Assembly (NCBI GenBank): GCA_051715345.1
Contig: JBPXJQ010000004.1
Span: 25,019-89,018 of the forward strand
DNA from: Candidatus Blackallbacteria bacterium
GTDB lineage: Bacteria > Cyanobacteriota > Sericytochromatia > UBA7694
DNA length: 64,000 bases
Direction: 5' to 3'
The position numbers were made by a program, and so were the translations under genes. Below the pieces are notes generated by a model. That model had not been told where the DNA came from. It did not search any database and saw nothing but the letters and a program-made list of their open reading frames with translations. Below, one piece after another: positions 1 through 15,677 of this stretch. The number at the start of each line of letters is the position of its first letter. Position 1 is the first letter of the stretch.

Positions 1-128
1 CCGGTTCGATGGTCAGTGGCCTCGCTGAAGGTGCAGGAGCAGTAGCCGAAGGAGCAGGGGCTGTGGCTGAAGGTCTGGGCGATCTGGTGGGTGGATTCTT
101 TGAGCTTTTGGGTGGGTTGTTTAATTAA
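1..128 (+). CDS. 3' end of a Gly/Ala-rich hypothetical protein (partial, 5' truncated by window)
   Basis: Open frame from position 3 translating ...GSMVSGLAEGAGAVAEGAGAVAEGLGDLVGGFFELLGGLFN, stop TAA 126-128 abutting the ATG of the next gene (TAAATG). Confidence 0.3.
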   Translation, partial: GSMVSGLAEGAGAVAEGAGAVAEGLGDLVGGFFELLGGLFN

Positions 129-2087
129 ATGTTCGCGGGCATCGACACGGGTGGCACCTTTACCGATTGTGTCAGTTTTGACCAAGGCCAATTGCGCGTC
201 CACAAAGTTGTATCTTGCCCCGCCAATCCAGCCCAAGCGGTTTTAACGGGGCTTGATAGCTTGCAAACGGCAAGCCCGCACACGATTAAATCGCTGGTGC
301 ATGGCACAACTGTGGCCACCAATGCGCTTTTAGAACGCAAATTGGCGCGCACGGCCCTGATCATTACCGCCGGTTTCAAGGATCTGCTCGGGATTGGCCG
401 TCAAAATCGGCCCATGCTCTACGCCTTACACAGCCAACTCCCGGCTCCACTGGTGTTGGCTGAAGACATCTTTGAAATCGATGAGCGCATCGGCAGTCAG
501 GGAGAAATCATTCGGCCCTTGCTTCAAGCACAGATCCAAGCCTGCATCGCAGCATTGCCCGCCGGGATTGAAGCGGTCTCTCTCTGCCTGCTGTTTAGCT
601 ATCGCAATCCCTTACACGAACAATTATTGGCAGCAGCCCTGCGCGAACAGGGCTTTCGGGTTTCTGCTTCACATGAAATTTTGCCTGAATACCGCGAATA
701 CGAGCGCTTCTCGACCACCACGGCCAATGCCTGCCTCATGCCCATCATGCAAAAATATATGGCCTCACTTGTGGCGGGTTTGGGTGCCTTGCCCTGCCGC
801 CTGATTCAGTCCAATGGGGGCAGCTTGCGCCTGAATGAAGTGGCCGATAAACCTGTCAGTTCTGTGCTCTCAGGTCCGGCTGGGGGCCTGATTGGCGCCT
901 GGGAAACGGGCAAACGTCTGGGTGAGACACAATTATTGACCCTGGATATGGGCGGCACGTCTACCGATGTCGCCCTGCTGAATGGTCAATTGCCCCTGCA
1001 AACGGAAGCCGTGATCAGCGGTATACCAATTAAATTGCCCATGTTGGCCATTCATACCGTGGGTGCAGGCGGTGGCTCGTTGATCACCGTCGATGCTGGC
1101 GGAGCGCTGCGGGTCGGCCCAGAAAGCGCGGGTGCGGATCCGGGTCCGCTCTGTTATGGCAAAGGAAAAATGCTCACAGTGACCGATGCGCAGGTCTTTT
1201 TGGGCCGGATTCCCGCCTCACGCAAGCTCGGTGGCCATGTGGCGTTGCAAACCGCTCCTTTGCAGACGGCCTTTGAAACCTTGGGCCAAGAACTCGGACT
1301 CTCAGCCCAGGCGGTGGCATTGGGGGCCTTGTCGGTTGCCAATGCACGCATGGAACGGGCCCTGCGCGTGGTATCGGTCGAAAAAGGCCAGAACCCGGCC
1401 GAATTTAATCTCTTTTGTTTTGGCGGAGCAGGGGGATTACATGCCTGTGAACTGGCCGAGTCCTTGGGAATCCCCAAAATTACCATTCCCGCCCATGCGG
1501 GGGTCTTTTCGGCCTTGGGCATGCTCTATGCCTCCGAAATCCGCGACTATGCCCGCACGGTTTTGGGAGAAGTACACTGGCAGCAAAAAGAGGCACTGGA
1601 ATTGGCTTTTGAGCGGCTGCGGTCACAGGCGGAAGTGGATTTTCAGGCCGCCTGGCAGGATTTAAAGCTCCAAGCCAGCCTGGACCTGCGCTATCCGGGG
1701 CAATCGTATGAATTAAATCTGCCCTATTCTCCTGCCTCTGAAGCTGACTTTCATGCTTTGCATATGGAATTACACCATTTTTCCCGTCCCGAGCTCTCAC
1801 CTGAATTGGTGACCCTTCGCCTGCGTGTCAGCCGGGAATTGCCCCAGCCCGATCTCTTGCCGCCACCGGCACAGAACCGCGTTCTCAACGCACTCTTTAT
1901 TCAAAATGTGGGCTTTGCCCAAGGTTTGCTCGAGACCCCCTTTTACGAGCGGGCTGAATTGCCCACAGACGTTTACATTTCAGGCCCTGCAATCATTCTG
2001 GAAGACACAGCCACCACCTTGGTAGCTCCTGGTTGGCGGGCACGTCTTCATGCCTTGGGCCATCTCTGTTTGGAGCAAGACCTATGA
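129..2087 (+). CDS. Hydantoinase/oxoprolinase family protein, A subunit (HyuA-like)
   Basis: 652 aa. N-terminus MFAGIDTGGTFTDCV is the typical ATPase-fold start of hydantoinase A/5-oxoprolinase/acetone carboxylase beta. Length fits the family. Stop overlaps start of the B subunit (ATGA). Confidence 0.85.
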   Translation: MFAGIDTGGTFTDCVSFDQGQLRVHKVVSCPANPAQAVLTGLDSLQTASPHTIKSLVHGTTVATNALLERKLARTALIITAGFKDLLGIGRQNRPMLYALHSQLPAPLVLAEDIFEIDERIGSQGEIIRPLLQAQIQACIAALPAGIEAVSLCLLFSYRNPLHEQLLAAALREQGFRVSASHEILPEYREYERFSTTTANACLMPIMQKYMASLVAGLGALPCRLIQSNGGSLRLNEVADKPVSSVLSGPAGGLIGAWETGKRLGETQLLTLDMGGTSTDVALLNGQLPLQTEAVISGIPIKLPMLAIHTVGAGGGSLITVDAGGALRVGPESAGADPGPLCYGKGKMLTVTDAQVFLGRIPASRKLGGHVALQTAPLQTAFETLGQELGLSAQAVALGALSVANARMERALRVVSVEKGQNPAEFNLFCFGGAGGLHACELAESLGIPKITIPAHAGVFSALGMLYASEIRDYARTVLGEVHWQQKEALELAFERLRSQAEVDFQAAWQDLKLQASLDLRYPGQSYELNLPYSPASEADFHALHMELHHFSRPELSPELVTLRLRVSRELPQPDLLPPPAQNRVLNALFIQNVGFAQGLLETPFYERAELPTDVYISGPAIILEDTATTLVAPGWRARLHALGHLCLEQDL

Positions 2088-3655
2088 ATGCCACTGTAGA
2101 TCCCGTCCAACTCGAAATCTTTAAACACCGTTTTCGCGCCATGGCCGAGGAAATGGGCGCGGCCCTCTGCCGCAGCGCGTACAGCTCGAATATCAAAGAG
2201 CGCAAAGATTTTTCCTGTGCCCTCTTTGATGCCCAAGGCCAATTATTGGCCCAGGCCGAACATTTGCCGGTTCATCTGGGCTCCATGCCACTGTCTGTGC
2301 AGGCCGCGATTCAGGCCCTGCACTTTGAACCCGGCGACAGTGTTTTGCTCAATGATCCCTTTGCTGGGGGCACCCACTTGCCAGATATCACCATGGTCGA
2401 AGGGGTCTTTTTAGACGGCGAAAGCAGTCCGCGTTTTTATGTCGCCAACCGGGCCCACCATGCCGATGTCGGGGGAATGACGCCAGGCTCGATGCCACTG
2501 TCGCGTGAGATCTTTCAGGAGGGGCTGCGCATTCCGCCACTCAAATGGCGAAAAAGGGGACAGGTCGATGCAGATTTATTGGCCTTGATTCTCAACAATG
2601 TGCGCACGCCCCTTGAACGCGAAGGGGACCTGCTGGCCCAACATGCCGCCAACCAAATTGGCAGAAAGCGCCTGATTGCATTGTGTCAAAGCGTGGGCCC
2701 AGAAATGGTAAGCCAACAGGGTAGGGCGCTGCAGGCCTATGCCGCCCGGATGATGCGGGCCGTAATTGCAAAAATCCCAGATGGGGTCTATGCTTTTGCC
2801 GATGCCCTCGAAGACGATGGGCAGGGATCTGGCCCCCTGGCCATTGCAGTGACTCTCACGGTTCAAGCTGAAAACGCCAAAGTGGACTTTAGCGGCACGG
2901 ACCCCCAAAGCCGGGGCTGTGTGAACACCATTCTGGCGGTCACCCTCTCTGCCGTCTTTTATGTCTTTCGTTGCCTGCTCGACAATGAAGTGCCCTCCAA
3001 CAGCGGCTGTTTAGAACCGATTGAGGTCATTGCGCCGCTCGGCACTTTGGTGAATGCCCGCTTTCCCTCAGCGGTGGTGGGGGGCAATGTTGAAACTTCT
3101 CAGCGTCTGGTGGATGTTTTGTTGGGGGCCCTGGCCCAGGCTTTGCCAGAGCTGATTCCCGCTGCCAGCTGTGGCTCAATGAATAATTTAATCATTGGCG
3201 GCAGCGCAGGGAATCAGCCCTTTGCCTATTACGAAACCATGGGCGGGGGCCACGGTGGCGGGCCCTTGGGGGCGGGGGTTTCGGGCCAGCACAGCCACAT
3301 GACCAATACCCTCAACACGCCGATTGAGGCCCTGGAATTGGCTTTCCCCTTTCGCGTTTGGCGCTATTGCCTGCGCAGCAATTCTGGTGGAGCGGGGCAA
3401 TTTCCCGGCGGCGAGGGTCTGGTGCGTGAGCTGGAAGTGCTCTCGCATGCCTCTGTCACCCTTTTGACAGAGCGGCGGGTACGGGCGCCCTATGGCCTCA
3501 ATGGCGGTGAACCCGGTGGTTTGGGACGCAATACCCTGATTCAGGGTGGCAAAGAGACAGAATTGCCAGGCAAGGTGCAATTACAATTGGAGCCAGGGGA
3601 TCGGGTGCGGGTCGAGACACCGGGCGGCGGGGGCTGGGGGGCTCTCACTCCTTGA
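2084..3655 (+). CDS. Hydantoinase/oxoprolinase family protein, B subunit (HyuB-like)
   Basis: ORF 2033-3655. The likely start is the ATG at 2084 (MNATVDPVQLEIFKHRF...), coupled to hyuA by an ATGA overlap. Hydantoinase_B-like sequence throughout (…GGTHLPDITMV…GGGHGGGPLG…). Confidence 0.85.
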   Translation: MNATVDPVQLEIFKHRFRAMAEEMGAALCRSAYSSNIKERKDFSCALFDAQGQLLAQAEHLPVHLGSMPLSVQAAIQALHFEPGDSVLLNDPFAGGTHLPDITMVEGVFLDGESSPRFYVANRAHHADVGGMTPGSMPLSREIFQEGLRIPPLKWRKRGQVDADLLALILNNVRTPLEREGDLLAQHAANQIGRKRLIALCQSVGPEMVSQQGRALQAYAARMMRAVIAKIPDGVYAFADALEDDGQGSGPLAIAVTLTVQAENAKVDFSGTDPQSRGCVNTILAVTLSAVFYVFRCLLDNEVPSNSGCLEPIEVIAPLGTLVNARFPSAVVGGNVETSQRLVDVLLGALAQALPELIPAASCGSMNNLIIGGSAGNQPFAYYETMGGGHGGGPLGAGVSGQHSHMTNTLNTPIEALELAFPFRVWRYCLRSNSGGAGQFPGGEGLVRELEVLSHASVTLLTERRVRAPYGLNGGEPGGLGRNTLIQGGKETELPGKVQLQLEPGDRVRVETPGGGGWGALTP

Positions 3656-3773
3656 GCCTGATCTCATAAATGATGCCTGGCTTTCTCATTCGCTCTAGGT
3701 AGGTTGGGTTACAATAACTGTGTAGATTTTATTCCTGTTTGCATATTGAATGACCTTTTTCTAAGGGTGTTTT

Positions 3774-6700
3774 GTGGAATCTTTATTTGACCAACTCAAG
3801 CCTGCATTAATTCAACGCTTATTAAACCAATCTGAAATTAGTTCTAAAGACCTGGATAATTTACGGGTTGTCAACAGCTTTCAAGAGGGCAAATCTGGCG
3901 CTGAAGTGCTTGAGGTTGAAAGCTTTTTGGGGGTTTTCAAAATCGAAGGGCGCACTGTTTTAAAAATCAGCACCCAGAGTCCTTGGCCAGATTATATTTC
4001 TGAAGAAGAGCGTTACCAACATCTTAGCCAGATTCAAGCCCTGTTTGCAAAATTGGTTTGGAGCACTACTCTGAAGGTTTCAAGCGAAACTGGAGAATTG
4101 CAAAATTACACTTGCACCTTTTGGCAACGTGCGCATGACCAGCAACCACTCCATGAAATGAATCAACTGAATCAACTCACACAAACCGAATTTTCAGCCG
4201 CTTTAAAATGTGTGGGGCAACGCTTGGTAGATGCTTTTTCTCTCGATGCACAGCCTTATCTTAGAGATGTTTCTTTTCCCTCCCTTTGTGAAGGTGTTTT
4301 GGGTTATCGTCTGCATCCCAAACAAGGACGCATTTACACCTTTGTTCAAGACCATTTCCAAGTCTCTTGGAAAAAGCCGACCTTTCGCTGGGCAGGTGTT
4401 GATTTGCCAGATCCTTATTATTATGCACGGGAAGCCCAAAACCTCAAACTCAGTCGGGTCTATCAAGGTGATATACACGGCGATCTTCATGCTGGTAATA
4501 TTTTTGCTGTGCTTAAAAATGGGAATGCCCAAGATATTTGCCTGATTGATGCAGGCCTCTCGGCTTCAAAGCAGGTTTTGTTTTATGACCAGGCTTATCT
4601 TGAAGTGAGCTTATTGCTGCAATCTGTATTGGCCCAACAAGAGAAAGAAAAAGACTGGGTACAATATCTTGGCTGGCTGAGTGACCTGGGCAATTTTGAA
4701 TTGTCTGACTTGCATCAGAAAAAGGGACTTCACTCTGAGTATTTGCCACTTCTAACGAAGATTCAAGCTTTGCGTTCATCTTTTACGACTTTTTTAGAGA
4801 CAAAAAATAGCCTTTCAGAAGACTTACGCAAGCAGTATCACTTTCAACAAATCTGTGCAGCCTTAAATTTTTGCAATAAACCTTTGGATCAGATTTCCCA
4901 GACTATGTCTTCTGTAGAAAAGAACAACTGTCTGATGCAGGGAGGGGCACAAAGGCGATTTTCTTATCTCTATGCAGCATTTTTCTTAAAAAGTTATTTG
5001 GCAAAATATGGTGATGCCCCAGAAATTGTTGACTTGAAACAAACATTGACTCGTGACCCCAGCTATCTTTATAAACTGGAGCTGCGCAAGCGAGAGGCTT
5101 ATGAATCTATCTGGAGAAAGTGGGGAACCCCTGAAACCAATCAACAATTATCAATTAAAGAATTATCTCAGGATTATCTTCAGCTAAGAGCGCTCAAATC
5201 ATTTAACCGTGTGCCTTCGTCAGTGAGCCATTATTATGCGAATTTTTTTTATCGTTGGATTTTTGTAAAAAAATACCCGAATTGTCAATCTTCAAATGAA
5301 AAACTGCAAATGTTGGCAATGTTGGCTCTTGCTGTTCAAGATTCATTTTCTCATTTGTCTGAAGTTTTAAAACAAGATCCTCAAATTGACCTCATGGGTT
5401 TGTCAGATGACTTAAAAGGAATAGAACTGTCAAAAACTAATCCAGAAAACAGATTAGATTGGTTCTATTTTGCTTTTCTATTAATTGAAGATTGCCTGTT
5501 CTTGGAAAATGAAGAGCTTTTTTCTGAGTGGATCAAAAGAGTTGAAAATGCAGTTAATGATCTTTCATTAATTAAACATGAAAAATTAGCTTCGATATAT
5601 AATCAAATTCAATATTACAAAGCTATTAAATTTGCTTTAGATCAAAAAATTGAATCACTAAAAGAGCACTTAGAACAATGGAAACCAGAAGAAGATGACT
5701 GGATTGATGCTGAATGGTGCATTAAAAAAGCCTTTTTAAATACCACACTGTTTAAGAGAAATTATCAAGAGGGGTTTGATTTTTTAGATTCAGTACTCTC
5801 ACAAGCGGATAAATGGCCTTTTCAGGAACAAATGTATTTTTTTGAGGGCTATGATTTTATTGAAAAGTCCTTCAGACATTATTCTGATCCAATTGCCTAC
5901 ATTGGGGGAGAAAAAAAGAAAGAATTAAATCTCCAGGGGTTTGAAACATTTCAAACTTATCTGGAAAAAAATATCATTCCAGATATCGAGAAAAATAATC
6001 CTTATTTCAATCAGGTTCGTATCTTTTTAAGTGGACAAGATATTCACGTTACCAGACGCAATGCTTCTTTGAATGCAATGGTTTTATTGTTTCAATTGGG
6101 ATTTATGCCACAGGTTTTTAGACTTCAATTGATTTCTCATGAAACCTGGCACCGGGTGAATCTTTATTTATTTAAGGAATATCTCCAATTCTCTTTTTTC
6201 TATCTTTTGAGATATTTAACTGTCAATGAAATAGATGCAGAATGGGTTAGAATTCAACTACATAAGGGTTTATTTGTATACAACAATGAGAGCATTAATG
6301 AAAAAATATTTTCTTTGACTCTTTCAATTTATAAACACCTCCGTGGTGAAGATAATCGCTTGTTGATGCTGATTGTTGCTGTGTTATCTGAGTTTATTCT
6401 GCAGATACCTGAAACATTTTGGAATGAATTTTTTTGGGATATTTGGACTACATTTAATCATATAGATCATAGAAATGTACTGTATTCTCAATCCAAACAA
6501 GGCCCTTTTTTCATAATTAAAAATTCGCTATCGCGGATCACAGACCCCGTTCAACTCGAAGAATGTTTGTATGTTTTATTAGAAACAGATGGGGATTTGG
6601 ATGCGGACTATTATATAAGGCCCCAACTTTTATATGAAATTATTAAAAATGTTCTTTATCAATCCATCCCGTTAAATGAGCGATTAATAGCCAGAGTTAA

Positions 6701-8963
6701 TGATTTAGTATATAAAACATCTGATTTAAAAATAGCTTATTTTGCTTTTGCAAAACTTAGATTGATTGAGGATAGGTTCTTAAATAGCTTACACAAAGAA
6801 AAAATAGCGTCTCATATTCAATTATACACAGACTTTCCTAGCTTCTTCAGAAGTACCTTTGCCTTTTTGGTTTTGTATACTTCTGCTTATCCTGAAGCAA
6901 GAAAAAATGTACATAAATTAATTATTGAAAATGGTAGAAGTATTTGGTCAACAGGGATTGAAAAAAATAAAGATGGTTGGGCTAAACATCATTTTGGTGA
7001 GGGTTCAGTAAAATTACATGAATACAAATACAAACAATATACCTTTCCCCAAGGACTACAATTTAATCAAACAGAGATTTTAGAGTTGTATCAAGCTTTA
7101 AAAGAATCTATTCAGGAATTCAAACAAAGCCCTTTTGCTCCTTCTCAAACCCAACTATCGACTCGGCTCATTTTTATGAGTGGACTTGATTTTTCACTGC
7201 TCAAAGAAATGAATTATTTTATAGATGACTATGCTGATATCCTTAAATTGGAGCCAGACTATCAAACTTTAAAAGAGGAAATTATGGCTGGAATTCAGGA
7301 ACATGCTCCTTCTTCAGGACGGCCTTCCGATTTGACTTCCGATAACCCAAATACAGTCCAAGAAGGTATTTCTCACTTGAGAGATATGTTGTTGGAACAC
7401 GATTTTGAGAATTTCACAGATTATTGGACAACTCTTCTAAGTAAAATTCTTCTTCAACAAGAACCACTTTTACATACTTCTTTAGAGTTAATGTCATATT
7501 GGCTGGTTTATTACAGAAATGAAGAAGCTATAAAATCATCACTTTTTCAAAATTTTTATTTGCAAATATTGGATAAATATCAAGCAAATAAACCTACTTC
7601 AGATTATCTAGAAAAAATTGAGTTGGGTTTGGTTAAAATATCCATGGTTCTTCGCTTTTGGAAGAAAAACTCAACTGGTATTGATTACTTTTTGGGATTG
7701 AGAAATACAAGTAAATATGAAAGTGTTAAGAATTTACCAGAACTTGATAATCAAGATATCTACCGACCAGAATTGTTTCCCACAATTGTTGATTTTTTAA
7801 AAAATGTCCAAACCACTGATTTTTTTCTGAGTGGAGTTTCGATTCAAGGCTTTAAATCTTTTTCAAACCATCATAATATCAATATTAAACTTCGACCTCT
7901 TAATGTTTTGGTTGGTGCCAATGGAGCGGGGAAAAGCAGCTTCTTTAAATTTTTAGAATTTGTTCAAGAATTCTCTCAAATGCCAATGGACAGTTTAAAT
8001 GCAAAAATGGGTTCAATCAGTGATTTGCTTTATTATGGCACTAAACAAACCGATTCATTGACTGGCAGTTTGACTTTTATTAAAAGTGAGCAAGAAAGTC
8101 TTTCTTACAATTTTCAATGCAAACCAACTGAAGATTTTAAATATTTTTACTTTGAGTCTGAGAGCATTACTTTGTCTTTGTTGGACCAAAACCAAACTCT
8201 CTATGAAAGTAAGAAACCACAGTCCGATTCTGTTCTTTTTACCCATGCTACACAACCGTGGGCAAAAATGTTGCGCGAATTGTTAGGCTCATTGGAACGT
8301 ATTCATATCCCAGATACATCTCTTTCCAGCAAACTCAGAGATGAAGCTAACCTTTATGATAATAAACATTTGGCCTCAGATGGAAAAAATTTAGCGGCCT
8401 TTCTCTATGCCCTAAAAAATTCACCGGAAGAGAAAGCACATTACAAACAGATGATTCGTCTGATTCGTCATGCCTTTCCTCAATTTCAAGAATTTGTGCT
8501 TGAACCTAATTTTGAAGATGCCAAAATTCAACTTCAATGGCGAGAAGAGGGTTCTGAATATGTCTTTGGAGCCCATCAGGCTTCAGATGGCTCATTGCGT
8601 TTTATGGTGCTCACCGCACTCTTGATGTCTCCTCCACACCGCTTGCCACGGATCTTAATTCTCGATGAGCCAGAACTGGGACTTCACCCAAAGGCTTTGG
8701 CAACCTTGGCCAATATGATCAGTTTGGCTTCGCAATATTGCCAAATTTTAATCGCCACCCAATCCAGCGAGTTATTAGACCATTTCGAAGCGGATGATCT
8801 CGTGATTGTGGATCGTACCCGTTTTGATCTTCAGACCAATGAGATGAAAGACAAAGCCTTTACTGTGATGACCCGTAAAAATTCTGAAGAATTGGCATCG
8901 TGGTTAGAAGACTATTCGCTCAGTGAACTCTGGAACAAAAATGTTCTTGGGGGTAAGCCATGA
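3774..8963 (+). CDS. Giant multidomain protein: N-terminal protein-kinase/APH-like domain, ~1000-aa helical low-complexity spacer, C-terminal OLD/AAA_21-type ABC ATPase (putative antiphage/abortive-infection effector)
   Basis: 1729-aa ORF with a GTG start preceded by AAGGG. N-terminus has a Gly-rich loop (EGKSGAEVLEV), a VLKIS lysine and the catalytic loop IHGDLHAGNIF (about nt 4470-4499, HGDxxxxN as in APH/choline-kinase/ELK folds) followed by LIDAGLS (a DFG-equivalent DxG). C-terminus has a Walker A at LNVLVGANGAGKSSFFKF (about nt 7914-7940), ASDGSLRF and a Walker B/D-loop RILILDEPELGLHP (about nt 8652-8690), then ILIATQSSELL. This is the canonical layout of AAA_21/OLD-family ATPases. The coding DNA is strikingly AT-rich relative to the flanks. 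Confidence 0.8.
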   Translation: MESLFDQLKPALIQRLLNQSEISSKDLDNLRVVNSFQEGKSGAEVLEVESFLGVFKIEGRTVLKISTQSPWPDYISEEERYQHLSQIQALFAKLVWSTTLKVSSETGELQNYTCTFWQRAHDQQPLHEMNQLNQLTQTEFSAALKCVGQRLVDAFSLDAQPYLRDVSFPSLCEGVLGYRLHPKQGRIYTFVQDHFQVSWKKPTFRWAGVDLPDPYYYAREAQNLKLSRVYQGDIHGDLHAGNIFAVLKNGNAQDICLIDAGLSASKQVLFYDQAYLEVSLLLQSVLAQQEKEKDWVQYLGWLSDLGNFELSDLHQKKGLHSEYLPLLTKIQALRSSFTTFLETKNSLSEDLRKQYHFQQICAALNFCNKPLDQISQTMSSVEKNNCLMQGGAQRRFSYLYAAFFLKSYLAKYGDAPEIVDLKQTLTRDPSYLYKLELRKREAYESIWRKWGTPETNQQLSIKELSQDYLQLRALKSFNRVPSSVSHYYANFFYRWIFVKKYPNCQSSNEKLQMLAMLALAVQDSFSHLSEVLKQDPQIDLMGLSDDLKGIELSKTNPENRLDWFYFAFLLIEDCLFLENEELFSEWIKRVENAVNDLSLIKHEKLASIYNQIQYYKAIKFALDQKIESLKEHLEQWKPEEDDWIDAEWCIKKAFLNTTLFKRNYQEGFDFLDSVLSQADKWPFQEQMYFFEGYDFIEKSFRHYSDPIAYIGGEKKKELNLQGFETFQTYLEKNIIPDIEKNNPYFNQVRIFLSGQDIHVTRRNASLNAMVLLFQLGFMPQVFRLQLISHETWHRVNLYLFKEYLQFSFFYLLRYLTVNEIDAEWVRIQLHKGLFVYNNESINEKIFSLTLSIYKHLRGEDNRLLMLIVAVLSEFILQIPETFWNEFFWDIWTTFNHIDHRNVLYSQSKQGPFFIIKNSLSRITDPVQLEECLYVLLETDGDLDADYYIRPQLLYEIIKNVLYQSIPLNERLIARVNDLVYKTSDLKIAYFAFAKLRLIEDRFLNSLHKEKIASHIQLYTDFPSFFRSTFAFLVLYTSAYPEARKNVHKLIIENGRSIWSTGIEKNKDGWAKHHFGEGSVKLHEYKYKQYTFPQGLQFNQTEILELYQALKESIQEFKQSPFAPSQTQLSTRLIFMSGLDFSLLKEMNYFIDDYADILKLEPDYQTLKEEIMAGIQEHAPSSGRPSDLTSDNPNTVQEGISHLRDMLLEHDFENFTDYWTTLLSKILLQQEPLLHTSLELMSYWLVYYRNEEAIKSSLFQNFYLQILDKYQANKPTSDYLEKIELGLVKISMVLRFWKKNSTGIDYFLGLRNTSKYESVKNLPELDNQDIYRPELFPTIVDFLKNVQTTDFFLSGVSIQGFKSFSNHHNINIKLRPLNVLVGANGAGKSSFFKFLEFVQEFSQMPMDSLNAKMGSISDLLYYGTKQTDSLTGSLTFIKSEQESLSYNFQCKPTEDFKYFYFESESITLSLLDQNQTLYESKKPQSDSVLFTHATQPWAKMLRELLGSLERIHIPDTSLSSKLRDEANLYDNKHLASDGKNLAAFLYALKNSPEEKAHYKQMIRLIRHAFPQFQEFVLEPNFEDAKIQLQWREEGSEYVFGAHQASDGSLRFMVLTALLMSPPHRLPRILILDEPELGLHPKALATLANMISLASQYCQILIATQSSELLDHFEADDLVIVDRTRFDLQTNEMKDKAFTVMTRKNSEELASWLEDYSLSELWNKNVLGGKP

Positions 8964-9676
8964 ACTGGAAACGTCTACATATTCTGGCAGAAGGGCCCAC
9001 AGAAGAACAATTTGCCAATGATGTAATTAAACCGCATCTTTATCAATATGCGGTAAATTCCTCAGTTCAATGCATTGTAACCAAACGTCTACGACAAGGT
9101 CCTGACAAAAAAGGTGGTTTAACTGATTACAGAAAGGCGCGGGAACATCTCGTTCGTTTGATGAATGAACATAAGGATACGAATTGTTTTTTTACGACGA
9201 TGTTCGACATCTATCACATGCCATCCTCAACTGAGCCAGAAAAAAGTTTTCCTGGTTATGCAGAGGCCATGAGAGAAATAAAAACATCTCATTTTGAAAA
9301 TGGCTTAACCATTCTGGCTCAAAAAATGAAAGAAGATCTTCAGCCTGAGGTCCCAAGAGTAGATCGACTACTTCCTTATTTTCAGTTACATGAATTTGAG
9401 GCTTTGATTTTTGTAGATCTCAGCTATCTCCGATTCCATTATCCGGTGGTGTGTGGCGATCTGCAATTTGAGCGGCTCGAACAAGCCTTACAATCTGCTC
9501 AAGGCGATCCCGAAAAAATCAATCATGAAAACGGGCCCGCAGCCAGAATCATTGAACAAATTAAAACCTACAGAAAACCAACAGGGGCAATGATAGCCCA
9601 AGATATTGGATTGTTTCGTCTGAGAGAAAAATGCCATTTCTTTGATCTCTGGCTGACATCCCTTGAAAAATTGTAA
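8960..9676 (+). CDS. DUF4276-like protein (TOPRIM-like partner of AAA_21 ATPases)
   Basis: 238 aa. Its start overlaps the stop of the giant ATPase gene (ATGA at 8960-8963). The N-terminus LHILAEGPTEEQF resembles the conserved EGxTE start of the DUF4276 family, which I recall as typically 187-238 aa and usually adjacent to AAA ATPases. The assignment is from memory of the family and was not searched. Confidence 0.65.
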   Translation: MNWKRLHILAEGPTEEQFANDVIKPHLYQYAVNSSVQCIVTKRLRQGPDKKGGLTDYRKAREHLVRLMNEHKDTNCFFTTMFDIYHMPSSTEPEKSFPGYAEAMREIKTSHFENGLTILAQKMKEDLQPEVPRVDRLLPYFQLHEFEALIFVDLSYLRFHYPVVCGDLQFERLEQALQSAQGDPEKINHENGPAARIIEQIKTYRKPTGAMIAQDIGLFRLREKCHFFDLWLTSLEKL

Positions 9677-9797
9677 AGATGACAGGCTCTCCCTACTGAC
9701 CTACTTGGCTTGAAGCCGTATCTTAGTTACCATAGGTAGTGGTACGCCCTGGGCCTGGTTCCAGACAGCTTATTCCCGATAGAAGCAACTGTCCGAA

Positions 9798-11030
9798 TTG
9801 AAAACCAGTCGCCCACAAATTGAAAATATGCACACATTCTTGTTTCTTTCCAAGCGCGATTTGATGCGCCTTTCCCCCATCTCTCTTGGCCTTTTATTGC
9901 TTTCCCTCACCCCACTTGTGGCCTGCGCCCCAGAAGAAGTCAAACAATACCGGGTTGCCAAAGTCTCAGCAGCCCCCGCCATGGCCCTATCAAATGCCTC
10001 AAACACGGCTTCAAGTGATGCCTCCGCAGAGGAAGGCCTGAGTTACACTGCCCCCGCCGATTGGCAGAAAATGCCCGCAGGTGGCATGCGCAAACTCTCA
10101 TTCAGCCTCAAAGGCGGTGGGGATTTCTCGCTGGTCACCCTACCAGGTAATGCCGGCGATCTCAAAGGCAATCTCAACCGCTGGCGCGGCCAAGTCGGCC
10201 TGCCGCCCCTGGAAGATCCCGCTGAGATAGCCAAAAGTGTCAGGGCTTTCACCGTTTCTGGCAGTGAAGGCATTGCCCTCGAACTCTATGCCCCCGAAGG
10301 CCAACCCGACAAAGCCATGCGCGTGGTGCTGGTCGAAAAAGAAGGCGCCAATTGGTTCTTTAAACTGGCAGGCCCCCGTGAATTGGTCAAGGCCCAGGCC
10401 AAAGCCTTTGAGACCTTTCTGGCCTCTGTCAAAATCAAAGCAGGAGCCTCGGCCCAAATGCCCGCAATGCCTGAGGGGCAGAGCATGCCCGGTCAGCCGC
10501 CGGTTGCTCCTAATTCGGACCCCAATTCAGCTCCCAATTCGGACATGAACGCGCCGGGTTTACCCAAAATGGAACCCCAGGCCACCAACACAAAACTCAC
10601 CTATACCCTGCCCGCCAGCTGGAAAGAAAAACCCGCTGGCAATATCCGTGTGGCCTCGTTTGAGGTCAAACAGGGCGAAGCGATTGGCGATGTTTCGATC
10701 GTCAGTTTGGCCGGTGATGGCGGCGGTCTGCTCAACAATACCAACCGCTGGCGCAAGCAGCTTGAAATGGTGCCCACCGATCAAGCGGGCCTCAAAAACG
10801 CAGTCAAAGATATTCAAATAGCCGGCCACAAAGGCTATTTTATGGCCCTATACAGCGGCATGGAAGGCCAGGGTATGTTGGTCGCCATGGTCGAGCAGGG
10901 TGGCCAAACCTGGTTTATTAAAATGGTCGCACCGGCCAAATTGATCCAAAGCCAAGAGAGCGACTTTCTGGCCTTTGTAAAGTCGATCGCCTTTCATGAC
11001 TCATCCCAAGTCAAGAGGCAAGCCACATGA
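9798..11030 (+). CDS. Secreted lipoprotein with an internal domain duplication (hypothetical)
   Basis: The likely true start is M at about 9864 (MRLSPISLGLLLLSLTPLVAC, lipobox LVAC). Two homologous about 150-aa halves (…YTAPADWQKMPAGGMRKLSFSLKGGGDFSLVTL…NRWRGQVGL… and …YTLPASWKEKPAGNIRVASFEVKQGEAIGDVSIVSL…NRWRKQLEM…). Stop overlaps the resB start. Confidence 0.6.
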   Translation: MKTSRPQIENMHTFLFLSKRDLMRLSPISLGLLLLSLTPLVACAPEEVKQYRVAKVSAAPAMALSNASNTASSDASAEEGLSYTAPADWQKMPAGGMRKLSFSLKGGGDFSLVTLPGNAGDLKGNLNRWRGQVGLPPLEDPAEIAKSVRAFTVSGSEGIALELYAPEGQPDKAMRVVLVEKEGANWFFKLAGPRELVKAQAKAFETFLASVKIKAGASAQMPAMPEGQSMPGQPPVAPNSDPNSAPNSDMNAPGLPKMEPQATNTKLTYTLPASWKEKPAGNIRVASFEVKQGEAIGDVSIVSLAGDGGGLLNNTNRWRKQLEMVPTDQAGLKNAVKDIQIAGHKGYFMALYSGMEGQGMLVAMVEQGGQTWFIKMVAPAKLIQSQESDFLAFVKSIAFHDSSQVKRQAT

Positions 11031-12235
11031 TAGACGCTCCCGCAGCTCCCCTGTCTGAAAAAAAACGCAAGCCCAAAACACCTTTGCAACAGGCAATGGC
11101 TTTCTTTGGCTCTCTCGAACTGACCGTGACCCTGCTGACGCTGAGTATTTTGCTGATCTTCTTTGGCACCTTGGCCCAGCTGGATCAAGGGGTCTGGACC
11201 GTGGTCAAAGACTATTTCCGCTCTTGGCTGGTCTGGGTCGATTTTCAGATTTTCTTTCCCCGCGACCGTGCCGTGCCGGGAGCCCTGCCTTTTCCCGGCG
11301 GAAATACCCTGGGCTCATTGCTTTTGATCAATTTAATGGTGGCCCATGCCCAGCGCTTTAAGCTCAGCAAACAAAAAATCGGCCTATCTGTGATTCACGC
11401 AGGCTTGATTCTCTTGTTGGTGGGAGAAGGCCTCACAGGTCTCTTTGCCGATGAGAGCAATATGTCGATCGACGAGGGGGGATCTTCCAATTACAGCGAA
11501 GACATCCGCCACACTGAATTGGCCTTTGTCGATAGCAGCGATGCCAAAACGGATTTGGTCACAGTGGTGCCCGAAAGCCAATTGCGCAGCGGCAAACGGA
11601 TTCAATCTCCACAACTGCCCGTGGATATTCAGGTGGATGCCTACTACAAAAATTCTGTCATGGAAAAAGATCCCTCAGGTGCTGGATTTAGGGCCAAACA
11701 GGCCCCCGAGATCAGTGGCACCCAAACGGCTGAAGGCGGCATCGACATGCCCACAGCCCTGGTCACGCTCTTTCCCAAAGGCAGCGACAAAGCCCTGGGC
11801 AGTTATACCACCTCGGTTTGGATCAATAGCAGCACTGACCTCGAAGTCAATGGCAAAAAATATGCTTTGAATCTGCGCTTTGAGCGCAGTTACAAACCCT
11901 ATACCTTTTACCTCAAAGATTTCCGCTTTGACCGCTATCCTGGCACGGAGATCCCCAAAAACTTTGAAAGCACGGTGCGGATTGTCGATACCGAACACAA
12001 AGTCGACCGCGAAGTGAAAATTTGGATGAACCACCCCTTGCGCTACCGGGGAGATACCTTTTACCAGGCCTCTTACAAACCCGATGAGTCCGGCACAGTC
12101 TTGCAGGTGGTCAAAAACCCCAGTTGGTTGATTCCCTATATCTCCTGTGTTTTGGTCACGCTGGGTCTGCTCTTGCAATTTGGTTTTTCACTTTCCCGTT
12201 CGCTTAAACGCCGCGCCAAAAGGAGTGCCACATGA
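11027..12235 (+). CDS. resB: Cytochrome c biogenesis protein ResB/Ccs1 (system II), compact form
   Basis: N-terminal TM helix after a basic stretch, then a periplasmic domain, then a C-terminal …NHPLRYRGDTFYQASYKP… plus a TM helix typical of the ResB C-terminus. 402 aa is shorter than the typical ~540 aa. Translationally coupled to ccsA (4-nt overlap). Confidence 0.75.
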   Translation: MIDAPAAPLSEKKRKPKTPLQQAMAFFGSLELTVTLLTLSILLIFFGTLAQLDQGVWTVVKDYFRSWLVWVDFQIFFPRDRAVPGALPFPGGNTLGSLLLINLMVAHAQRFKLSKQKIGLSVIHAGLILLLVGEGLTGLFADESNMSIDEGGSSNYSEDIRHTELAFVDSSDAKTDLVTVVPESQLRSGKRIQSPQLPVDIQVDAYYKNSVMEKDPSGAGFRAKQAPEISGTQTAEGGIDMPTALVTLFPKGSDKALGSYTTSVWINSSTDLEVNGKKYALNLRFERSYKPYTFYLKDFRFDRYPGTEIPKNFESTVRIVDTEHKVDREVKIWMNHPLRYRGDTFYQASYKPDESGTVLQVVKNPSWLIPYISCVLVTLGLLLQFGFSLSRSLKRRAKRSAT

Positions 12236-13935
12236 AAGCCCTGGAAAAATACCTTCCGCTCTTGCTTGCACTGATCTGTCTTTTGGCTTTTGGCCGCAGT
12301 ATGGTCGAAAAACCGTATGCCAAACAGGCTTTTGATTTAAATGCCTTTAGCCAAATGCCCGTTTTGCACAAGGGCCGGGTTCAACCCTTGGATTCGTTTG
12401 CCCGCAACAACCTGCTCTTTATTTCGGATAAACAGATGTACAGCGACAGTGAGGGCAAAAAACAACCCGCTGTGCAGTGGTTGGCAGAACTGATGAGTGG
12501 CCGCCCCGAATCGCGTCAGCACAAGATTTTCCGGATTGAACATGACGATGTGCTCTCTTTGATGGGGCTCAAGCCCCGCGAAGGTCTGCGCTACTCGTTG
12601 GATGAATTGGCGCCCAAATACCCGGCCCTGATTCAACAGGTGCAAATGGTCTTTCAAAAGCCCGATGCCAGCCGCGATTTGGTGGATCTCAAAACAATTG
12701 AGCTTTACGAACAGCTCGAGGTTTTTCGCCAGATCATGGCCTTTGAAGTCCCTTTGGTTTTGCCTGCCTTAAAAGCCGAGGGCAATGATTGGCTGCCGCT
12801 GGGTGGAGAAAAAAGCGACCTCAACCGCAGCAATTATGCCAATGCCTGGTATAAAAGCCTCAAAGCCTACCAAAACAACGATATTGTCCTGTTTAATGCC
12901 ACTACCGCTGAATACCTTCAGGGCCTCAAAAGCTCACACCCCACGCTGTTCCCCAAATTACAAATTGAGCAGCGTTTCAATTTGAGCATGCCCTTTTACC
13001 AGGCCATGGTCCTGTTTGTCCTGGCATTTTTGCTCAGTGTCTTTGGCTGGATGTTTTGGGGCAAGGCCCTGAACCGCTCAGCCTTTGGCTTGGTCGTGAT
13101 CGGACTTGTGATCTTTACAGGGGCGCTACTGACGCGCATGTATTTGCAGGGCCGCCCGCCAGTCACCAATTTATACTCTTCGGCAATTTTTGTCGGTTGG
13201 GTTGCGGTTCTTATGGGCCTGGGAGTGGAGTGGTTCATGAAAAACGGATTTGGCACAATCATGGCCTCAATCACGGGCTTTTGTGCGCTTTTGGTGGCCC
13301 ACAATCTCGGCAGTGGGGGTGATACCCTCGAAATGATGCGGGCTGTTCTCGACACCAATTTCTGGCTGGCCACCCATGTCACCACTGTGACCATGGGCTA
13401 TTCCGCCAGTTTCTTGGCTGGATTCATGGGCCTGATCGTCATCATCATGGGGGTCTTAACCCGCAAATTGGACAAAGATCTCTACACCAAGATCTCGGCA
13501 ATGATCTACGGTACAGTGGCATTTGCCACCCTGTTTAGTTTTGTCGGCACCGTGCTGGGTGGCATCTGGGCCGATCAGAGTTGGGGCCGCTTTTGGGGCT
13601 GGGATCCCAAAGAAAACGGCGCAGTCATGATCGTGCTTTGGAATGCGATTATTTTACACGCCCGCTGGGGGGGGCTGGCCAAAAAACGCGGAATTGCGCT
13701 CTTGGCCATTGGAGGCAATATTGTCACAGCCTGGTCGTGGTTTGGCGTAAACATGCTGGGAGTGGGTTTGCACTCTTATGGTTTTACCGATAAAGCCTTT
13801 ATTGGCTTAGCGGGATTTGTGGGCCTGAATTTGCTTGTGATCTGGTTGGGAACCATTCCCGAAGAACATTGGCGCAGTTTTAAAGGCCCGCAGGCAAATA
13901 ACAAGGGATCTCTGAGCGATGTCTCTCTGAAATGA
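12232..13935 (+). CDS. ccsA: Cytochrome c-type biogenesis protein CcsA/ResC with a ~250-aa N-terminal extension
   Basis: The C-terminal half is polytopic and carries the CcsA-like Trp-rich WGRFWGWDPKENGAVMIVLWNAIILHARWGG motif. The N-terminal part has a signal/TM segment then a soluble region. Confidence 0.8.
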   Translation: MKALEKYLPLLLALICLLAFGRSMVEKPYAKQAFDLNAFSQMPVLHKGRVQPLDSFARNNLLFISDKQMYSDSEGKKQPAVQWLAELMSGRPESRQHKIFRIEHDDVLSLMGLKPREGLRYSLDELAPKYPALIQQVQMVFQKPDASRDLVDLKTIELYEQLEVFRQIMAFEVPLVLPALKAEGNDWLPLGGEKSDLNRSNYANAWYKSLKAYQNNDIVLFNATTAEYLQGLKSSHPTLFPKLQIEQRFNLSMPFYQAMVLFVLAFLLSVFGWMFWGKALNRSAFGLVVIGLVIFTGALLTRMYLQGRPPVTNLYSSAIFVGWVAVLMGLGVEWFMKNGFGTIMASITGFCALLVAHNLGSGGDTLEMMRAVLDTNFWLATHVTTVTMGYSASFLAGFMGLIVIIMGVLTRKLDKDLYTKISAMIYGTVAFATLFSFVGTVLGGIWADQSWGRFWGWDPKENGAVMIVLWNAIILHARWGGLAKKRGIALLAIGGNIVTAWSWFGVNMLGVGLHSYGFTDKAFIGLAGFVGLNLLVIWLGTIPEEHWRSFKGPQANNKGSLSDVSLK

Positions 13936-13992
13936 GCATTTCGCCTTTTTGCTCCCTGCTGTTATAATTCCAACTGAGGAAAACGCAATTTC

Positions 13993-14916
13993 ATGGATCT
14001 CAAAGCCCTCTTAAAAACCCACGAACAGGTTGCCAGCAAACGCAAACACTTGGGTGCTCAGGCCTGTGAACAAGGCTATAGCTTGTTGATCAAAGCAGAA
14101 CAAACTGGGTTTAAAGATAAATCCCTGCTAAAGTCTGCTTCAGATGCTTTTATTCGTGCAATTCGCCAAGAACGCGGCAATGCCGAATCCTATGTCGGAT
14201 TGGGCTATTTGCTCATGTTGATTTCCGACTTTGAAGGCGCAGAAAAGCAACTCAAAGCGGCCCTGCAATTTGCGCCAAATAACTCTGATGCCAAATCCCT
14301 GCTGGAGTTTAGCCAACACAAACGTTTGGGCATTCCACTGAAATCCGCTCAGCCCGAAACGGAAGAGTCCGAACAATTGTTTGTTCATTTTGTGGAACGG
14401 ATTCAGACTGCAACCCGAAAAGCCAAGGCCTCTCAACTCAAACAGCCCCTGATGGACACAGCACAATTGCAAGTTTTGGTCAAAGAGCACGGTGAATCCC
14501 AGTGGCGTTACCAACAATTGGAGCAAGAATTGGCTGAATTGGATCTGGCTTTGCCTGCCGATTCGCTGAAGGGACTATTAAACAGCTTTGCCGATCTGCT
14601 GCGCCATCAGACCAAAATGATTCAGACCTCTTTGACCTTTCAGAAGTTGGAGCAGGCCTTGCTAAAGCAAATGGAACGGGCACGGGACAGCATCGTCAAT
14701 CTTCCCCATTTGCGCAGCAAAGAGGCCATCCAGGACTTTGAGCAGAATACCCTCGAAGATCTGCTTGACCACTGCGATAAACTGGCAGACCAACTGGATT
14801 CTATTTCCGATCAGGGCCACGATATTCGATCGCTCGAAAGACAATACGAGACATTGGTACAGATGATTGAAAACCTGCAGGAACAAATCGACGGTCAGCT
14901 CGAACAGGGTTTTTAG
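13993..14916 (+). CDS. Hypothetical protein, TPR-like N-terminus plus coiled coil
   Basis: 307-aa ORF, helical and Gln/Leu/Glu-rich. Convergent with tetR with a 4-nt stop overlap. Confidence 0.5.
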   Translation: MDLKALLKTHEQVASKRKHLGAQACEQGYSLLIKAEQTGFKDKSLLKSASDAFIRAIRQERGNAESYVGLGYLLMLISDFEGAEKQLKAALQFAPNNSDAKSLLEFSQHKRLGIPLKSAQPETEESEQLFVHFVERIQTATRKAKASQLKQPLMDTAQLQVLVKEHGESQWRYQQLEQELAELDLALPADSLKGLLNSFADLLRHQTKMIQTSLTFQKLEQALLKQMERARDSIVNLPHLRSKEAIQDFEQNTLEDLLDHCDKLADQLDSISDQGHDIRSLERQYETLVQMIENLQEQIDGQLEQGF

Positions 14917-15677
14917 GGCCGCGCCAACCCATTCAATAACATTTCCAGGGTGGATTCGAGTAAATCCTCGGGCTTATCCGCACCCAAATTATCCCATTTC
15001 AACTGCTTGTTGACTAATAATGAAGTAAAACCATGAATTTGCGCCCAAAAAGTTAAAGCAATAAGTTCTGCCGGTGCTTTCCGGAGCTGCTTATCCTTGA
15101 TCGCCGTTGAAATCGTTTCAACGAAATAGATAAAGGTATCTTCAGTGGCCTGAGACAAATGGGGGTAAAGCGCTTTGTCTTCAATTGCAGCACCAAACAT
15201 CAAAGCAAAATAATCGGGAAATTCAAGGCCAAACTGACAATACACCCTGGCTTGGGCCCTGAGTTTTTCCAAAGGCTTGCTCTCAGGCAGAGCGGCCAAG
15301 CGCAGGGACATTTTCTCAAAGCCCCGCGCAGCAACTGCAGCAATCATCTCCTGTTTGTCAGCAAAATGACGATAGGGAGCAGCGGGGCTCACACCCACCG
15401 CTTGAGCAATCGCTCGCAGACTCAGACCCTGCACCCCTTTTTGGGTTACACATGCCAAAGTCGCCTCAAGCAGGGCTTCGTACAAATCACCATGGTGATA
15501 GGGTTTATCTGCCACCGCTTTTTTTAAACGCAGAGAGCGGGGCTTGGGTATTTCGCTTCCAGGCAGAGACGGTGCCAATGCAGAAAATTGAGCCAATTGC
15601 TCATCCATGCGCTGAGAGAGGGCATCCAGCTCTTGATCATTCATGGGAGCAGGGAGAGATTTTTTTGCTCTACCCAC
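14913..15677 (-). CDS. TetR/AcrR family transcriptional regulator
   Basis: HTH region …LEATLACVTQKGVQGLSLRAIAQAVGVSPAAPYRHFADKQ… The roughly 55-aa N-terminal extension is unusual, so the start may be a downstream Met. Confidence 0.7.
   Translation of the reverse strand: MGRAKKSLPAPMNDQELDALSQRMDEQLAQFSALAPSLPGSEIPKPRSLRLKKAVADKPYHHGDLYEALLEATLACVTQKGVQGLSLRAIAQAVGVSPAAPYRHFADKQEMIAAVAARGFEKMSLRLAALPESKPLEKLRAQARVYCQFGLEFPDYFALMFGAAIEDKALYPHLSQATEDTFIYFVETISTAIKDKQLRKAPAELIALTFWAQIHGFTSLLVNKQLKWDNLGADKPEDLLESTLEMLLNGLARP

Follow-up and report, generated by a model that had tools for sequence, protein, structure and literature searches.

A candidate antiviral module of Sericytochromatia in which a TCAD9 kinase-like domain and a DSR-like helical domain are fused to the ATPase of a HEC-01 pair

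The PADLOC system HEC-01 ("Hma-embedded candidate 01") consists of the ABC ATPase HEC-01A and the TOPRIM/DUF4276 protein HEC-01B and was discovered embedded in Hma defence systems (bioRxiv 10.1101/2024.01.29.577857). Here we describe a locus of a Candidatus Blackallbacteria bacterium (Cyanobacteriota; Sericytochromatia; UBA7694) in which an ATPase of this type forms the end of a protein of 1,729 amino acids. The locus lies in a stretch of 64,000 nucleotides (GenBank assembly GCA_051715345.1, contig JBPXJQ010000004.1, positions 25,019 to 89,018 of the forward strand), which is called the window throughout. It comprises a giant gene, encoding a TCAD9 kinase-like domain, a DSR-like all-helical domain and the ATPase, and a second gene encoding a DUF4276 protein of 238 amino acids. 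We lean towards reading the pair as a two-gene antiviral module of the abortive-infection type, in which a DSR-type protein with effector and sensor continues into the ATPase of a HEC-01 pair.

All parts of this locus have described relatives. In DSR2 of B. subtilis a helical bundle and a HEAT-like domain capture the tail-tube protein of the phage, upon which the N-terminal SIR2 domain is activated, and the C-terminal domain also makes dimer contacts (PMC11850899). The Dsr1/Avs7 sensor, which senses capsid protein, is recombined with NADase, nuclease or protein-kinase effectors (PMC12803255). TCAD9 is named after the vWA-MoxR-VMAP conflict systems with which it is associated (Kaur et al. 2020, PMC7159879) and is counted among the KINtaro kinase-like families. 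DUF4276 was placed in the Toprim superfamily, with Mad4 of MADS as a homologue (PMC12065111), and the HEC-01 paper likewise puts the DUF4276 partner with TOPRIM (bioRxiv 10.1101/2024.01.29.577857). MADS itself is a methylation-dependent operon of eight genes, including a kinase gene, with Mad6-8 as mandatory components. In PARIS an ABC ATPase and a separately encoded TOPRIM nuclease form one immune complex, which degrades tRNA upon a viral-protein trigger. The ATPase of PARIS is said to hold and then release the nuclease.

The C-terminal part of the giant protein is matched by the PADLOC model HEC-01A (PDLC04175, E 6.1e-105, residues 1352-1729 against profile positions 6-362 of 363) and by nine further PADLOC models for HEC-01A, for which profile lengths range from 264 to 464 positions. 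In Pfam, AAA_21 (6.8e-25, residues 1376-1669) and SMC_N (8.5e-12) were detected at the C-terminus, which bears out the AAA_21 ATPase proposed there by a first-pass annotation that a model had made from the DNA letters alone. The Walker A (G1381-ANGxGKS1388), signature (Q1602xSxGxLRF1610) and Walker B (L1630-DEPELxLHP1639) motifs are invariant in six full-length homologues. All motifs quoted in the first-pass annotation (EGKSGAEV, VLKIS, IHGDLHAGN, LIDAG, GANGAGKSS, ASDGSLRF, ILILDEPELGLHP and LHILAEGPTEEQF) are present in the translations.

The product of the second gene belongs, as had been suspected, to DUF4276 over its full length (Pfam, 1.2e-34) and matches PADLOC HEC-01B (PDLC04188, 3.5e-50). 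Its acidic positions E11, E15, E16, D83, E145 and E147 are invariant in the homologues and would correspond to the catalytic sites of Toprim proteins. Both open reading frames (ORFs) were recovered exactly as first annotated (Table 1), including the overlap ATGA at 8960-8963, where the TGA of the giant gene is shared with the ATG of the DUF4276 gene. In all five relatives with gene context the DUF4276 gene follows directly, with a 4-nt overlap or a 3-nt gap, and no other neighbour is conserved. As read from the sequence, the DUF4276 gene is translationally coupled to the giant gene via the ATGA overlap. Judged by these profile matches, the ATPase and DUF4276 pair is the already described PADLOC candidate system HEC-01: the C-terminal 378 amino acids and the adjacent, coupled partner on the same strand match HEC-01A and HEC-01B. 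However, in the giant protein the ATPase is preceded by about 1,350 amino acids with the kinase-like and the DSR-like domains.

Table 1. Features of the kinase-ATPase fusion locus; positions refer to the window.
Feature	Position	Strand	Evidence
Giant gene, 1,729 aa, GTG start: TCAD9 kinase-like, DSR-like helical and HEC-01A ABC ATPase modules	3774..8963	+	ORF call, translation
Protein-kinase-like domain, TCAD9, APH/choline-kinase-like, aa 1-420	3774..5033	+	Pfam, motifs, AlphaFold2, Foldseek
DSR-like all-helical (alpha-solenoid) domain, aa ~435-1320, candidate trigger sensor	5076..7733	+	HMMER, hhalign, tblastn, model
Swapped/hypervariable cassette in the DSR-like domain, aa ~451-1136, 2.06 kb	5125..7180	+	blastn against L001
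ABC ATPase, AAA_21 / PADLOC HEC-01A type, aa 1352-1729	7827..8963	+	PADLOC, Pfam, motifs
DUF4276 / HEC-01B gene, 238 aa, ATG start, predicted TOPRIM-superfamily nuclease	8960..9676	+	Pfam, PADLOC
Low-GC island, ~6.1 kb, from the hydantoinase B gene to a conserved 410-aa gene	3656..9797	.	GC, Pfam on flanks

The profile of giant residues 1-1200 was searched exhaustively with HMMER against 1.84 billion representatives and retrieved 434 proteins. Among these, the kinase part alone was found in 117, the middle part alone in 31 and kinase plus middle in a single protein (P0011), and the fusion of kinase, middle and ATPase formed six clusters only. The six full-length homologues are colinear with the giant protein, have the same architecture and are 36-55% identical. 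Since they are colinear and come from independent datasets, an assembly chimera or a pseudogene could be ruled out. A 5.2-kb open frame in AT-rich DNA, kept in six lineages, is also not a matter of chance.

Proteins of at least 90% identity, named 'AAA family ATPase' and 'DUF4276 family protein', are found at NCBI in a Candidatus Sericytochromatia metagenome-assembled genome (MAG). A genome scan yielded one close relative and otherwise distant kinase matches; in this relative, the Sericytochromatia contig L006, a gene start of 93% identity lies behind the same hydantoinase genes and the contig stops inside the gene. A long family-specific DNA pattern, which matched the window and every known member as a control, had 0 matches in metagenome_contigs and 0 matches in 2.9 million viral contigs, so there was no sign of phage carriage. 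Word-indexed homologue searches gave one fragment with the N-terminal alignment and nothing with the middle-region alignment, and a metagenome scan with the latter was drowned in short-pattern matches.

P0011 is a complete ORF of 1,290 amino acids with the kinase and the DSR-like domain, and its catalytic loop (HGDCHSGN) is intact. Neither an ATPase nor a DUF4276 gene was found on the P0011 contigs. As P0011 is complete without the ATPase, kinase and DSR-like domain can stand alone, as SIR2 with that domain does. Behind P0011 (L010:257-5951) the other strand encodes a reverse transcriptase of the group II intron type (RVT_1 and GIIM).

At the N-terminus the giant protein matches TCAD9 (PF19974) at residues 204-291, with 50.3 bits for the whole protein and 55.8 bits for the isolated domain (cut-off 40). 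The kinase motifs comprise the Gly loop G39-S41, K64, E77, H235-G-D237-L-H-x-G-N242 and I258-D259-x-G261 and are invariant in the six homologues; in 32 more distant STAND-linked relatives the G, K, H-x-D...N and D at the corresponding positions are invariant as well. An AlphaFold2 model of residues 1-420, calculated with an alignment of 28 sequences, reached a pLDDT value of 90.2 and a predicted template modelling (pTM) score of 0.91. With a probability of 1.0 and E values from 1.5e-5, Foldseek matched this model best to choline kinase, maltokinase, APH, ethanolamine kinase and N-acetylhexosamine kinase, and behind these, at E ~2e-3, to eukaryotic protein kinases. By profile, motifs and model the N-terminus is a real TCAD9 kinase-like domain, for which phosphotransfer is predicted, and the initial call of a eukaryotic-like/APH-type kinase stands with a score above the gathering cut-off, a model of pLDDT 90.2 and the fold matches to choline kinase and APH.

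The relatives that share only the kinase are mostly STAND NTPases with the kinase as N-terminal domain. An nSTAND_NTPase5 domain was found in 28 of 32 of them, and a further relative, P0007, carries NB-ARC and TPR. The giant protein resembles TCAD9 on STAND NTPases and in ternary systems (PMC7159879) in the family, in the catalytic set and in the N-terminal position within a large immune-type protein. Unlike STAND and Avs proteins, however, it has no NB-ARC, NACHT or nSTAND match, and its sole NTPase is of the ABC class and C-terminal. No vWA, MoxR or VMAP family was present in the Pfam scans of six flanking genes or in the Pfam tables of L001-L005.

The region between kinase and ATPase, about 900 amino acids, is predicted to be all-helical and shows conserved positions throughout in the six homologues. 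It had been taken for a low-complexity spacer of roughly 1,000 residues, and this had to be given up, as hhalign of the giant middle against the 31 proteins that carry the middle part alone gave a probability of 100% and an E of 1.1e-76 over 819 columns (giant residues ~435-1312). Most of these proteins (26 of 31) have an N-terminal SIR2_2 domain. The PADLOC Dsr2 model was matched by all five SIR2-bearing proteins that were scanned (1e-26 to 1e-48), in one case over residues 2 to 1168, and no Dsr1 model was matched by any of the five. In addition, tblastn with the giant middle domain found one of the 31 proteins, in L012 (E 1.5e-21). The isolated middle region had no match of its own in Pfam or PADLOC, and the N-terminal region scanned alone was likewise without a PADLOC match.

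In all 31 middle-only proteins the homologous region stops not more than 21 residues from the C-terminus, and their terminal motif recurs in the giant protein near residue 1320, followed by a linker of about 30 amino acids and then the ATPase. Judging from this placement and this motif, the giant protein probably holds an entire C-terminal domain of DSR type; on the alignments, its middle region forms a whole domain and is homologous to the C-terminal part of SIR2 proteins with a match to PADLOC Dsr2. As in DSR2, an N-terminal enzyme is followed by a large helical domain. However, unlike DSR1 and DSR2 the giant protein has no SIR2 match and its N-terminal enzyme is TCAD9 kinase-like, and the helical domain, which is C-terminal in 31 of 31 stand-alone relatives, is internal here with an ABC ATPase behind it. 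The Avs7/Dsr1 proteins also show a helical-repeat sensor with varied effectors including protein kinases, and P0011 and the N-terminal 1,320 amino acids of the giant protein fit this pattern. An ABC ATPase or TOPRIM fusion is not mentioned for them (PMC12803255), however, and the SIR2 relatives of the giant protein match the Dsr2 model.

A strongly conserved block within this domain, GIQEHAPSSGRPSDL (residues 1173-1187, window positions 7290-7334), occurs in the ATPase-fused family only: P0011 and the SIR2-type relatives have no HAPSSGRP segment here. The block might serve as a phospho-acceptor loop or form an interface to the ATPase.

The DSR-like domain is also the site of a probable exchange. 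The metagenomic contig L001 carries the giant-DUF4276 pair at the same chromosomal site as the window, and blastn aligned the two over window positions 27-5124 (79% identity) and 7181-16999 (80%). For the intervening segment no DNA similarity to its L001 counterpart (7348-9385) was detected apart from a patch of 66 bp. The proteins behave accordingly: between window and L001 the kinase is 83% identical, the ATPase 74%, DUF4276 78% and the flanking proteins 78-92%, and residues 421-1130 are only 27-32% identical. In the cassette region the window protein is as far from that of L001 as from the most distant family members, which makes the phylogeny of this region incongruent. In the control pair P0004/P0005 the divergence is even across all modules.

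The simplest reading would be that a cassette of 2.06 kb was replaced by a divergent allele, with extreme local acceleration as the alternative. Such a pattern would be expected of the specificity-determining part of an immune receptor. As the DSR-like domain is the most variable part of the protein, it is a better candidate for the sensor than the kinase. The first-pass annotation had offered the kinase as sensor or effector; the effector role fits its position, and the sensor role would pass to the hypervariable middle domain. Diversity-generating retroelements yield a short, adenine-targeted variable repeat. As a source of the variability such an element was set aside on the pattern only, which is a 2-kb block with sharp edges and no residual DNA similarity.

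The gene context of the pair differs between relatives. In L002, a MAG labelled Cyanobacteria JACYMC01, it is embedded in a DISARM locus (DrmA 2.7e-301, DrmB, DrmC, DrmMI), as HEC-01 was embedded in another defence system at its discovery. DrmC, DrmB and DrmA lie on one side of the pair and DrmMI and an SNF2 gene on the other, adjoining DarT and an ADP-ribosylglycohydrolase gene. Along L002:1-24063 two systems are inserted among the DISARM genes (WYL, DrmC, DrmB, DrmA ... DrmMI, SNF2): the giant-DUF4276 pair, which lies on the opposite strand, and the pair of DarT and ADP-ribosylglycohydrolase. A TPR gene of 350 amino acids without PADLOC match stands between DrmA and the giant gene. In the P0005 branch (L004:7808-10008, L005:737-2994) a CbiA/ParA-like ATPase gene precedes and overlaps the giant gene, and further 5' lies an AlbA_2/HATPase_c_4 gene matching the PADLOC models for pAgo and pAgo-associated SIR2 (7.5e-19). 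These two genes may be extra components of the P0005 branch only. In L006 the upstream genes are the same as in the window. Homologues in variable islands had been expected, which is true for the differing contexts of the relatives and does not apply to the window, L001 and L006, where the pair occupies a housekeeping site.

In the window the pair forms an AT-rich island, as first described, with a GC content of 0.36 for the giant gene (0.32 in its middle) and 0.40 for the DUF4276 gene versus 0.57 in the upstream and 0.51 in the downstream flank. Pfam identified hydantoinase/oxoprolinase A and B genes upstream and, downstream of the 410-amino acid gene, ResB-like and CcsA-like cytochrome c biogenesis genes and a TPR gene. 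At the island edges no integrase, transposase or tRNA was found, the whole window contains no tRNA or Rfam element, and a promoter/terminator scan was no better than chance. Despite the island GC of 0.36-0.40, the kinase and ATPase ends have diverged from L001 like the flanking housekeeping genes (~79-80% DNA identity), which suggests long residence without compositional amelioration. As the insertion site is common to the window and a related genome, we regard it as a small stable island and not as a recent mobile insertion.

Compared with the other ATPase-TOPRIM systems, the locus shares with PARIS (AriA + AriB, OLD class 4) an AAA_15/21-type ABC ATPase with a separately encoded TOPRIM-superfamily protein. 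However, its partner matches DUF4276/HEC-01B alone, with no AriB or DUF4435 match, and nothing in PARIS corresponds to the kinase and DSR-like modules. In difference to OLD classes 1-3 the ATPase is the last domain of the giant protein and the TOPRIM-superfamily domain is encoded by a gene of its own; the PADLOC models Old (1.1e-14) and GajA (4.5e-11) match it partially. MADS has a Mad3 AAA_21 ATPase and Mad4 DUF4276 pair plus a kinase gene as separate components. However, the NCBIfam model antiphage_MADS3 gave 101 bits with the giant protein against a cut-off of 420, and neither methylase nor specificity genes stand in the scanned flanks, which carry the genes for hydantoinase and cytochrome c biogenesis. 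As the defining features were not found, membership in MADS, PARIS, OLD classes 1-3, STAND or the ternary vWA-MoxR systems was rejected.

The domains and their homologies, the conservation of the catalytic residues, the constant pairing of the two genes, the swapped cassette and the position inside a defence locus are the findings from which we infer a defence role, a trigger, a kinase target, a coupling and an order of events as follows. The DSR-like domain would bind a phage-made protein, as do the solenoid domains of DSR2 and Dsr1/Avs7, and its central cassette would determine which protein is recognised. Upon binding, the giant protein would change in its conformation or its oligomeric state. 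This change may activate the N-terminal TCAD9 kinase, which is placed where the SIR2 NADase sits in DSR and where the effectors sit in STAND proteins. Binding would also drive the ATP-dependent engagement of the C-terminal ABC ATPase heads, and this would release or activate the DUF4276 TOPRIM nuclease, by analogy with AriA-AriB of PARIS. The nuclease would then cut nucleic acid and the infection would be stopped.

In our view the predicted architecture is best read as an immune receptor on a single chain, in which a DSR-like domain would act as sensor, a kinase takes the effector position and an ATPase would gate a TOPRIM nuclease, and we hold this reading with modest confidence. The defence role is proposed because of the strong PADLOC matches, the homologue embedded in DISARM next to DarT and the variable contexts among the relatives. 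Several findings weigh against it. HEC-01 gave no protection in E. coli against any phage tested (bioRxiv 10.1101/2024.01.29.577857), so the antiphage or abortive-infection function named in the first-pass annotation has the PADLOC matches and the DISARM-embedded homologue on its side and these assays against it. By fold the kinase is nearest to small-molecule kinases. The middle region of the window protein does not match the PADLOC Dsr2 model directly; PDB sequence searches with the giant protein, a profile of the middle region and a profile of the SIR2 relatives found no DSR1 or DSR2 chain; and fold searches with a low-confidence solenoid model returned generic HEAT/TPR matches alone and no solved DSR structure. 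Therefore the link to the studied DSR proteins hangs on the name of a single PADLOC model. The module stands amid housekeeping genes, with no other defence genes near it, in the window, L001 and L006, and six clusters are too few for enrichment statistics.

What the kinase does in such a receptor divides the possibilities further. It is possible, and we put it forward tentatively, that one swappable DSR-type sensor controls two effectors, an active kinase of the APH/choline-kinase type, which would phosphorylate a host or phage target and thereby kill or arrest the cell, and the ATPase-gated TOPRIM nuclease. Rather unlikely appears the same defence module with the kinase as a regulator, which binds nucleotide, autophosphorylates or phosphorylates the ATPase or DUF4276, and with the TOPRIM nuclease as sole effector. 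Such a regulator would suit the block GIQEHAPSSGRPSDL, which has two serines, occurs only in the ATPase-fused family and could be phospho-acceptor or interface; it would also suit MADS, where a separate kinase gene is paired with the Mad3/Mad4 ATPase-DUF4276, and the many kinase domains of related conflict systems that are non-catalytic (Kaur et al., PMC7159879). However, the catalytic residues are invariant in the giant family, the N-terminal position holds the effector in the DSR and STAND relatives, and in P0011, which has kinase and DSR-like domain only, the kinase is left as the sole candidate effector.

It is improbable that the pair is not antiviral at all and acts as a selfish toxin-antitoxin or addiction-like pair or as a housekeeping DNA/RNA-processing complex of Sericytochromatia and relatives. 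The constant position in three related genomes, with hydantoinase genes on one side and cytochrome c biogenesis genes on the other, the lack of mobility genes, the HEC-01 assays without defence and the Pfam description of AAA_21, which reads 'putative AbiEii toxin, Type IV TA system', would all agree with it. A housekeeping role predicts broad syntenic conservation, however, and the family is patchy and very rare, with six clusters in the searched representatives and zero matches in two contig collections. Moreover, its composition is foreign, the contexts in other lineages are entirely different, one homologue lies in DISARM beside DarT, and the nearest relatives of all three modules are immune proteins. 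Very improbable is an ordinary HEC-01 pair with an N-terminal extension that neither senses nor catalyses and only serves for scaffolding or oligomerisation, or is what remains of a decaying fused gene, even though PADLOC would name the locus HEC-01 from the C-terminal 378 amino acids and the partner alone, solenoids are often scaffolds, the fold searches were non-specific and the C-terminal domain of DSR2 mediates dimer contacts. Decay predicts frameshifts and loss of motifs, and none were seen: in six lineages of 36-55% identity the 1,350-amino acid extension keeps its open frame, its colinearity and the invariant kinase residues. The domains to which it is homologous serve as sensors in related proteins, and the cassette exchange lies between conserved ends.

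The HEC-01 pair as a candidate, TCAD9 kinases on immune NTPases and the shuffling of sensors and effectors including kinases are already known. A description of a kinase fused to such an ATPase, as in this three-module protein, was not found in the TCAD9, DUF4276, HEC-01 and MADS literature or in a review of the OLD family. Most likely, the giant protein is an undescribed fused form of known antiviral parts; the locus had been announced as an undescribed module, which applies to the fusion of kinase and ATPase and not to the ATPase-DUF4276 pair.

The fusion ties together DSR-type sensors, the TCAD9 kinases of NLR-like proteins and the ATPase-TOPRIM systems (OLD/PARIS/HEC-01), which are usually studied apart. 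The labels 'AAA family ATPase' at NCBI and 'HEC-01' in PADLOC would miss 1,350 amino acids of informative architecture. If active, the module would be a natural experiment in which one sensor is wired to two outputs and would offer a way to learn the role of a kinase effector in bacterial immunity, with P0011 as the minimal test case. It would also provide a ready-made specificity swap, as the two syntenic alleles differ essentially by a 2-kb cassette, and the silence of HEC-01 in the assays might reflect the need for a sensing partner. Should one sensor indeed serve two effectors, P0011 would be the 'defence-associated kinase' counterpart of the defence-associated sirtuins, and HEC-01 would gain a natural trigger-sensing partner, which would explain its silence when tested alone.

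Elsewhere in the window the large ORFs that were scanned are mostly housekeeping genes (ValRS, MMPL, a solute-binding protein, subtilase). The 410-amino acid ORF behind the island (9798-11030) has normal GC and no match in Pfam, NCBIfam or PADLOC, and the corresponding L001 protein is 80% identical. The ResB-like gene starts within an overlap with its stop codon. The ORF may belong, as an uncharacterised member, to the cytochrome c biogenesis operon rather than to the island. An ORF of 1,244 amino acids (53327-57061) has no Pfam family at E <= 1e-5. A protein of 817 amino acids (30774-33227) contains the shoulder domain of the major vault protein (MVP; 3.6e-27), Band_7/SPFH and a weak Vault_3 repeat and is by these domain matches a bacterial MVP-like/SPFH protein.

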